Source: Escherichia virus TH47
Direction: 5' to 3' (one strand)
Sequence record: MT446416.1
Length of the DNA: 64,000 nucleotides
The position numbers and the translations under genes are program-made. Shown one piece after another: positions 35,941 through 36,427 of the stretch (positions are counted from its first letter, which is position 1; every line of letters begins with the position of its first letter). The notes beneath the pieces were generated by a model. It saw only the letters and a list, made by a program, of their open reading frames with translations, was not told the DNA's origin and did no database searches.

Positions 35941-36105
35941 TCATCGGTGCACGATATGCATCAGTACTTCTTCGTCGAGTTCAGTACTTAAATATGCTTT
36001 GTACACGCACTTGATACGTATAACATCCCACATTCTAGAATCTAATGGTAGATAATAAGGATTCCACTTTAATTTTTGGCGTTTCATCCACTCTTCATGT
36101 GTCAT
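35941..36105 (-). CDS. 54-aa MTHEEW-family micro-protein, copy C (not in the ORF track)
   Basis: Hand translation MTHEEWMKRQKLKWNPYYLPLDSRMWDVIRIKCVYKAYLSTELDEEVLMHIVHR; ATGA overlap with copy B. Confidence 0.55.
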   Translation of the reverse strand: MTHEEWMKRQKLKWNPYYLPLDSRMWDVIRIKCVYKAYLSTELDEEVLMHIVHR

Positions 36106-36266
36106 ATTCGTACCAGTAGTTCAATTAAGTACATTTCATATGCTGGATCGTTGATAAGTTTATCATACAGATGTGACTCTGAAATGAATTCCCAATGATA
36201 TTTTCGCCATTTACCAAAACCTGCATATCTAAAATTAATGTCATTCATCCATTCTTCATGTGTCAT
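36102..36266 (-). CDS. 54-aa MTHEEW-family micro-protein, copy B
   Basis: MTHEEWMNDINFRYAGFGKWRKYHWEFISESHLYDKLINDPAYEMYLIELLVRI; ATGA overlaps on both sides. Confidence 0.6.
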   Translation of the reverse strand: MTHEEWMNDINFRYAGFGKWRKYHWEFISESHLYDKLINDPAYEMYLIELLVRI

Positions 36267-36427
36267 AATCGTACCATTATTTCAATAAAGAACCACGGAT
36301 ATACTTCATGGTTTATAAGTTTATCGTATTCTGCTGGGTCTGATATAATTTCCCAATGATATTTTCGCCAACTACCTATACCCGAATATCTAACATTAAT
36401 GTCATCCATCCATTCTTCATGTGTCAT
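36263..36427 (-). CDS. 54-aa MTHEEW-family micro-protein, copy A
   Basis: MTHEEWMDDINVRYSGIGSWRKYHWEIISDPAEYDKLINHEVYPWFFIEIMVRL. Confidence 0.6.
   Translation of the reverse strand: MTHEEWMDDINVRYSGIGSWRKYHWEIISDPAEYDKLINHEVYPWFFIEIMVRL

Follow-up and report, generated by a model that had tools for sequence, protein, structure and literature searches.

Clusters of small early genes are known from large lytic phages, among them the host-takeover module of SPO1, the hyperplastic regions of T4 and the open reading frames (ORFs) trna.2-4 of the T4 tRNA region. Here we describe a locus of comparable layout in a 64,000-nucleotide (nt) stretch of Escherichia virus TH47 (sequence record MT446416.1; the whole stretch is referred to as the window), where three tandem ORFs of 54 codons, named copies A, B and C, and a separate 58-codon copy, D, encode a family of small proteins to which a more remote fifth member can be added. 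As in the SPO1 and T4 clusters, the short ORFs are arranged head to tail, with host-type consensus promoters and with tRNA genes and a homing endonuclease as neighbours, and the layout of the window matches that of the T4 tRNA region with segB, which likewise sits within the T4 tRNA cluster. What is unusual for such modules is that most of the small ORFs here are paralogues and belong to a single family. No homology to trna.2-4 was found when the family profile was searched against the six-frame translation of T4 66-76 kb (best E 0.1). We lean, with moderate confidence, towards reading the locus as an early, host-transcribed, translationally coupled and unequally recombining gene family whose products would be host-directed binders, and not accessory factors of the adjacent HNH homing endonucleases.

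The tandem sets are tightly packed and lie in an accessory region that they share with the phage tRNA genes and free-standing homing endonucleases, and every gene of this region is on the minus strand. The family members in the window are as follows.

36427-36263, minus strand: copy A, 54 amino acids (aa), MTHEEWMDDINVRYSGIGSWRKYHWEIISDPAEYDKLINHEVYPWFFIEIMVRL; opens the tandem set; orthologue of 121Q gp125
36266-36102, minus strand: copy B, 54 aa; middle gene of the tandem set
36105-35941, minus strand: copy C, 54 aa; closes the tandem set
39006-38830, minus strand: copy D, 58 aa; orthologue of 121Q gp118
39188-39003, minus strand: fifth member, 61 aa, MQPKTFDEW...YFSIAVMDKIR; phrog_31562, E 6e-41

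An ORF listing (at least 30 aa, ATG starts), together with a direct reading of the minus strand over 35700-36700, confirmed what a preliminary description of this DNA had reported, namely three ATG-initiated ORFs of exactly 54 codons joined by ATGA; the listing also returned the fourth copy of 58 codons that had been placed at 38830-39006. The stop of A and the start of B overlap at 36263-36266, and the stop of B and the start of C at 36102-36105, in each case as ATGA. In the same manner, D starts within an ATGA at 39003-39006 that also contains the stop of the 61-aa ORF upstream of it, and this ORF, the fifth member, which was absent from the preliminary description, thus forms an ATGA-coupled pair with D. 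Copies A, B and C all open with ATGACACATGAAGA(A/G)TGGATG, and D shares that start peptide; the first ~23 nt are nearly identical between paralogues. The peptides YHWEIISDPAEYDK, YHWEFISESHLYDK and MWDVIR occur in A, B and C, respectively. The protein identity between A and B, earlier put at about 60%, was measured as 63%, with a DNA identity of 79%; at the protein level, C shares 25% and D 28% identity with A.

All four copies match phrog_10970 over its full length, with E values of 1.9e-26 for A, 1e-24 for B, 8.2e-26 for C and 2.7e-29 for D, each spanning profile positions 1-55 or 1-56 of 56. The earlier remark, by which C and D have mainly the N-terminus in common, therefore understates the relation. 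The PHROG carries no function label, and the four window proteins had no match in Pfam or NCBIfam; a PDB sequence profile search was likewise negative. The window belongs to Asteriusvirus, being a 121Q/PBECO4-like jumbo coliphage with 82-97% nucleotide identity to 121Q, PBECO4, phAPEC6 and others. These ORFs recur in 35 phage records, and coding sequences (CDS) for them, labelled as hypothetical proteins, are already present in more than 30 GenBank records. In 121Q they are the hypothetical proteins gp125, gp126 and gp127, 165 nt each with 4-nt overlaps, and the phAPEC6 counterparts of the tandem ORFs are gp094c-096c. A profile search of phage databases with the 54-aa family, which had been proposed as a check, recovered PHROG 10970 and the Asteriusvirus orthologues. 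The Asteriusvirus proteins of PHROG 10970 and 31562 (121Q gp125-127, gp118 and gp114; phAPEC6 gp094c-096c and gp099c) are the same genes as those of the window; compared with 121Q and PBECO4, the window has an HNH cassette upstream of A and is without the extra paralogues 'E' and 'F'. Copies A-D fall below the 60-aa ORF track used for the preliminary description and so were overlooked in that track, though already predicted in public annotation. The reported finding is thus correct, yet the genes had already been annotated and clustered in PHROGs. What is new here is the remote fifth member, the connection of two PHROGs, the copy-number polymorphism and the arrays of ~25 genes in uncultured relatives. 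We found no paper that discusses this small-protein family, and neither the link between PHROG 10970 and 31562 nor the ~25-copy arrays are described in any paper found.

The coding status of the ORFs was evaluated by comparing orthologues in ten genomes, the window and nine related ones. In each of the ten, the three tandem copies measure 162 nt plus stop, with no indels. The ratios of nonsynonymous to synonymous substitution rates (dN/dS), calculated by the Nei-Gojobori method, are 0.17 for A, 0.24 for B, 0.26 for C and 0.20 for D, and the variable sites of these orthologues are most often at third codon positions. The codons of the conserved MTHxEW start vary synonymously (ACA/ACG, CAT/CAC, GAA/GAG), so that the constraint on this motif acts on the protein. 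Frame-disrupting indels in relatives, which had been named as grounds for refuting the ORFs, are missing from all nine relatives compared. Only one change that breaks the frame was seen, the loss of 1 nt from copy C in phage CMSTMSU, the record of which is flagged UNVERIFIED. A truncated variant of C (P0016) is present on one short metagenomic contig. An antisense 54-aa ORF at 36195-36359 on the plus strand was rejected, as stop codons break its frame in six of six relatives.

An explanation in which the ORFs are untranslated and the repeat acts as a DNA or RNA element, such as a signal for recombination or for processing in tRNA transcripts, would make use of the near-identity of the first ~23 nt among paralogues and of the position of the genes among tRNAs. 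It is barely credible in view of the low dN/dS values, the predominance of third-position variation, the synonymous changes within the conserved start region itself, a protein homology that extends at 20-30% identity over ~57 sequences in the coding frame and strand only, and the lack of any Rfam match overlapping the ORFs. The earlier judgement that these are real genes is upheld by dN/dS values of 0.17-0.26, exact length conservation, synonymous variation, PHROG membership and CDS annotation in relatives. Judged by sequence comparison, it can be regarded as established, short of direct protein detection, that A, B, C, D and the remote fifth member are genuine protein-coding genes.

The fifth member is connected to the core family by profile methods. 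With hhalign, the profile of its subfamily aligned to that of the core family over 53 columns with a probability of 93% and an E value of 3.5e-7. An iterative profile search of all fetched loci converged after nine rounds and recovered the fifth member at E 8e-13, with no matches on the non-coding strand among ~3,200 six-frame segments. On this profile evidence, phrog_31562 is distantly related to phrog_10970, the two together making up one multigene family. When the six-frame translation of the whole 64 kb was searched with a hidden Markov model built from the four copies, no additional one came up; the only family members in the window are A-D and the remote fifth one.

Signals for transcription and translation were examined next to these genes, the promoters by consensus scans only, using the sigma-70 consensus TTGACA-N16-18-TATAAT. 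Between 31 and 41 kb, the coding strand has seven sites matching at least 11 of the 12 consensus positions and the opposite strand has none, against ~1.2 expected for both strands together. Over the whole window the scan gave 37 such sites, every one of them on the minus strand. This density of promoters, all on the coding strand, is characteristic of a region that host RNA polymerase reads early. The entire 64 kb resembles one densely promoted, unidirectional early region. The sites closest to the tandem set are listed below.

37614-37641, minus strand: sigma-70-like promoter, 12/12, from the consensus scan
37473-37501, minus strand: sigma-70-like promoter, 12/12, from the consensus scan
37107-37134, minus strand: sigma-70-like promoter, 10/12, with extended -10; upstream of tRNA-Arg
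36437-36440, minus strand: Shine-Dalgarno-like AAGG, 9 nt upstream of the ATG of A
35903-35930, minus strand: sigma-70-like promoter, 11/12, directly past the stop of C

The promoters at 37641, 37501 and 37134 are the presumed source of the transcript carrying A, B and C, and no terminator-like site was found between them and tRNA-Arg, the HNH gene and A-B-C. By its position, the promoter at 35903-35930 marks the next transcription unit, which contains a 118-aa ORF (35515-35871). Neither B nor C has a site comparable to the AAGG of A, which fits termination-reinitiation at ATGA, and the ATGA junctions are conserved in relatives; translational coupling of B and C to the upstream cistron is plausible on this pattern. 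In the mechanism that we propose, host RNA polymerase would transcribe the genes early, as polycistronic RNAs shared with tRNAs, and A would start from its own AAGG site, with B and C being translated by termination-reinitiation at the ATGA overlaps.

The predicted proteins of the window family have masses of 6.8-7.5 kDa, isoelectric points of 4.9-7.9, grand average of hydropathy values of -0.3 to -0.85 and an aromatic content of 13-21%, with no hydrophobic span or signal-like N-terminus in any of them. Their acidic to neutral charge argues against nucleic-acid binding. AlphaFold2 (AF2), run with the family alignment, predicted four short helices at residues 3-13, 22-28, 31-38 and 44-51. The two AF2 models have mean predicted local distance difference test (pLDDT) values of 73 and 78, with a predicted template modeling score of 0.50 for the pLDDT-78 model. 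Foldseek gave no matches against PDB and only E values above 4 against BFVD; with a helical bundle this tiny, such results are not informative. Residues M1, H3, W6 and R53 never vary within the core family, and T2, E5 and H24-W25 hardly do. Remote subfamilies retain only MT-x-[ED]W; His3 and Arg53 are lost jointly, and a C-terminal IA[LV]G motif is found instead. This joint loss suggests that the N- and C-termini touch in the folded protein. According to the proposed mechanism, the proteins would be small stoichiometric binders of host proteins, for host takeover or counter-defence, with each paralogue showing a different surface on a common helical scaffold.

The tandem set is polymorphic among Asteriusvirus isolates, with two or three copies, and the whole tRNA region holds 4-8 members, some of them paralogues that are not in the window. 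The A-B-C arrangement is kept in 121Q, WPEC3, JNE01, Turkey5 and ph0011. Copy B is missing in PBECO4, UE-S1 and A4, which have an A-type copy and C only, and JP4 has B and C preceded by the leader of A; C was present at every locus examined. The copy-number breakpoints fall at the conserved start sequence ATGACNCAYGARGARTGG and at the conserved junction GGTACGAnnATGAC, from which we infer unequal recombination. The tandem sets would thus grow and shrink by unequal recombination at ATGACNCAYGARGARTGG and GGTACGAnnATGAC, a process that would account for 2-3 tandem copies, for 4-8 members per region and for ~25 in distant relatives, each paralogue then being retained. It should be added that the 71-aa upstream protein 121Q gp120 (locus L001, 5790-6005) and its equivalents in PBECO4 and JP4 are not family members. 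In front of several family members, the last ~25 nt (cacttaattgaactggatacataaa) look like the 3' end of the coding sequence of family copies (acttaattgaactactggtacgaat), possibly a trace left by an earlier tandem junction.

The family is rare: it forms 16 clusters at 90% identity among 5.8 billion proteins, and an exhaustive profile search of 1.84 billion proteins returned 22 representatives, almost all of 43-71 aa. Two long eukaryote-like repeat proteins, P0028 and P0035, were rejected as spurious low-complexity matches; otherwise two word-indexed searches and the one exhaustive profile search found only small proteins of the same phage lineage. Among cultured phages, tblastn matched only 36 Escherichia/Salmonella jumbo-phage records, all Asteriusvirus where the genus is stated, and IMG/VR scans gave nothing beyond 121Q itself. 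Within the databases searched, the family has no members beyond Asteriusvirus jumbo coliphages and a few uncultured relatives.

The divergent matches come from these uncultured phages (Logan assemblies ERR4503900 and SRR34023382-85), in which the genes form long arrays. Locus L014, a 78-kb contig, has 26 consecutive ORFs of 50-66 codons within 4.7 kb (6547-11259). There are 23 consecutive ORFs of 50-66 codons at L010 (81-4637), about 23 each at L021 (8925-12403) and L022, and ~12 at L015. By the iterative profile, at least 18 ORFs of the L014 array and at least 16 of the L010 array are detectable family members; the middle block of L014 (ORFs 7-13) is too diverged for profile assignment and is alike in length and layout. 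The array junctions are mostly -4 to +2 nt, that is, 4-nt overlaps or gaps of 1-2 nt. The few fetched loci contain ~57 sequence types below 70% identity. The L014 and L010 arrays are collinear, with orthologous positions 55-81% identical and paralogues within an array at a median of 31%, which indicates that the expansion is old and that each paralogue is individually maintained. The L014, L010 and L015 arrays lie directly upstream of tRNA clusters and are syntenic with the window, as their flanking 276-aa gene is 30% identical to the gene at 43001-43831 (E 1e-42) and a DUF1353 gene is also common to the array loci and the window. A T5orf172/MUG113-domain gene (GIY-YIG-like endonuclease family) was noted inside the L014 tRNA cluster (12159-12716), in parallel with the HNH insertions of the window and with T4 segB.

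The tight junctions throughout the arrays, -4 to +2 nt, and the conservation of each paralogue individually between distant lineages could also be explained if the paralogues were subunits of one hetero-oligomer, with coupling fixing their stoichiometry. An obligate complex is hard to fit with tandem sets of 2-3 copies, overall numbers from 4 to ~25 and the loss of different members by different isolates, and the family is unmentioned among the 62 phAPEC6 virion proteins; we consider this explanation quite improbable.

The genes that flank the tandem set and copy D in the window are a tRNA gene and two HNH genes.

36466-36990, minus strand: free-standing HNH/NUMOD4 homing-endonuclease gene, 174 aa; phrog_59, E 2e-48; outside the family
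37024-37097, minus strand: tRNA-Arg(tct), found by ARAGORN and Rfam; upstream of the tandem set
37713-38687, minus strand: HNH gene, 324 aa; downstream of D

The preliminary description had placed all copies beside HNH genes or tRNAs, which holds within this window, and had suggested that the small proteins could be factors associated with homing endonuclease genes (HEGs). Copy A does lie 38 nt downstream of the HNH gene at 36466-36990, and D ~140 nt upstream of the one at 37713-38687. However, the suggestion that the proteins are accessory factors of these endonucleases has very little to recommend it, as the HNH insertions are missing from most relatives that keep the same ORFs and no HNH genes are interleaved in the large L014 and L010 arrays. 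At the site beside A, the HNH gene is absent in 121Q, PBECO4, phAPEC6, ph0011, UE-S1 and JP4. Homology with the relatives resumes ~22 nt before the ATG of A, which defines the insertion boundary, and these ~22 nt are conserved in relatives regardless of the sequence farther upstream. Synteny with HNH genes is likewise not conserved in the relatives examined: a tRNA gene, not an HNH gene, precedes the first copy, ending 23-26 nt before it, in 121Q (tRNA-Leu) and in ph0011, UE-S1 and JP4 (tRNA-Arg). In WPEC3, JNE01, A4 and Turkey5 the first copy begins ~110 nt after tRNA-Ser. Among the relatives compared, no correlation was seen between HNH presence and family copy number. From these comparisons, the HNH genes are mobile insertions into the tRNA region and not conserved partners of the small ORFs; it is the linkage of the family to the tRNA region that is conserved.

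The cassette upstream of A in the window consists of a different tRNA-Arg allele and the HNH/NUMOD4 gene. Comparison of window 36990-37105 with L009 4455-4595 showed that this tRNA-Arg(tct) allele differs from the tRNA-Arg of ph0011, UE-S1 and JP4. The joint arrival of the allele and the HNH gene looks like co-conversion of flanks by a free-standing homing endonuclease. On the other side, relatives carry a tRNA-Gly downstream of D, whereas the window has a tRNA-Gly-like remnant (~38694-38755, minus strand) followed by the 324-aa HNH gene. The remnant aligns to 121Q tRNA-Gly(tcc) with a 13-nt insertion and was called by neither ARAGORN nor Rfam; a probably spurious 55-aa ORF (38620-38787) overlaps it. 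Farther along, a full-length group I catalytic intron (34219-34532, minus strand; Rfam RF00028, 100.5 bits, E 1e-25) has tRNA-Ser(gct) (34632-34721) on one side and, on the other, an ORF of HNH type with 234 aa (33450-34154). Past the 3' end of the intron comes a T-arm-like sequence, CTGTGTTCGACTCACAG, and the equivalent place in 121Q is occupied by tRNA-Met. The gene interrupted by the intron was not identified by in-silico splicing with ARAGORN or by comparison with the 121Q tRNAs.

The persistent linkage to tRNA genes gives rise to another explanation, in which the family would be a counter-defence battery against tRNA-targeting nucleases (anticodon nucleases, Septu, PtuAB, tRNase toxins), tied to the adjacent replacement tRNAs and amplified in accordion fashion by HEGs. 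The linkage to the tRNA cluster does persist over deep divergence: Asteriusvirus members are 23-110 nt from tRNA genes, and the L014, L010 and L015 arrays abut tRNA clusters though their flanking proteins are only ~30% identical. The copy number is polymorphic, and tRNA regions with homing endonucleases are a documented amplification site of anti-defence loci (PMC13096335). Nevertheless, the linkage may mean no more than that both occupy a plastic early region; the arrays, being old and collinear, are not fresh amplifications; sequence and fold searches connected the family with no known inhibitor or immunity protein; and HNH presence does not go with copy number. We regard the nuclease explanation as unlikely. 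A stronger form of it, in which the ~25-gene arrays would be a 'tRNA-protection island' with each paralogue neutralising another nuclease variant after an HEG-seeded accordion expansion, is slightly less likely still. The preliminary description had also listed anti-defence micro-proteins as a candidate role, which the present results neither favour nor disfavour.

We therefore return to the early-expressed family of host-directed binders, against which several points must be set. Its function is wholly inferred from genomic context, and only sequence patterns speak for coupling and for co-transcription with tRNAs. The confidence of the structural models is only moderate. An orthologue dN/dS of ~0.2 is ordinary purifying selection, with no signature of an ongoing arms race. 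No transcriptome, Ribo-seq or proteome of Asteriusvirus infection was found in the literature, and the text of the phAPEC6 virion proteome, which covers 62 virion proteins, does not mention gp094-096.

In practical terms the result for the window is modest, as its five short ORFs are genuine genes that are already annotated in relatives. Of wider relevance is that one family of ~55 residues can fill 4.7 kb with ~25 diverged and individually conserved paralogues, with coupled-type junctions, beside the tRNA cluster of a jumbo phage. These ~25-gene arrays are candidates for roles in host takeover or counter-defence. Being small and soluble, the predicted proteins should be easy to synthesize and screen, and if a target were found, the paralogue series would provide a ready-made specificity panel.

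We have compared the family with two further kinds of described systems. Characterised small inhibitors, including colicin and pyocin immunity proteins, showed no sequence or fold similarity to it in our searches. In general character the predicted proteins are like colicin/pyocin immunity, anti-CRISPR and anti-defence proteins in being small, soluble, helical and acidic to neutral, for which diverged tandem paralogues are possible.

The second comparison is with genomic accordions, of which the amplification of K3L in poxviruses is one. In the tRNA regions of T-even phages, homing endonucleases can drive the segmental amplification of anti-defence loci (Chihara et al. 2026, PMC13096335). Like such accordions, the present locus features tandem copy-number change of short units, situated by tRNA genes and free-standing homing endonucleases, with presumed recombination at short repeats. 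In contrast to them, the copies here are old and diverged (79% nucleotide identity between A and B, ~30% protein identity among others) and are conserved position by position between lineages. The endonucleases also differ, being HNH here and GIY-YIG SegB in the T-even accordions. By analogy, HEG-driven amplification is a possible origin of the tandem copies, and the family would be at most the frozen product of an accordion process.

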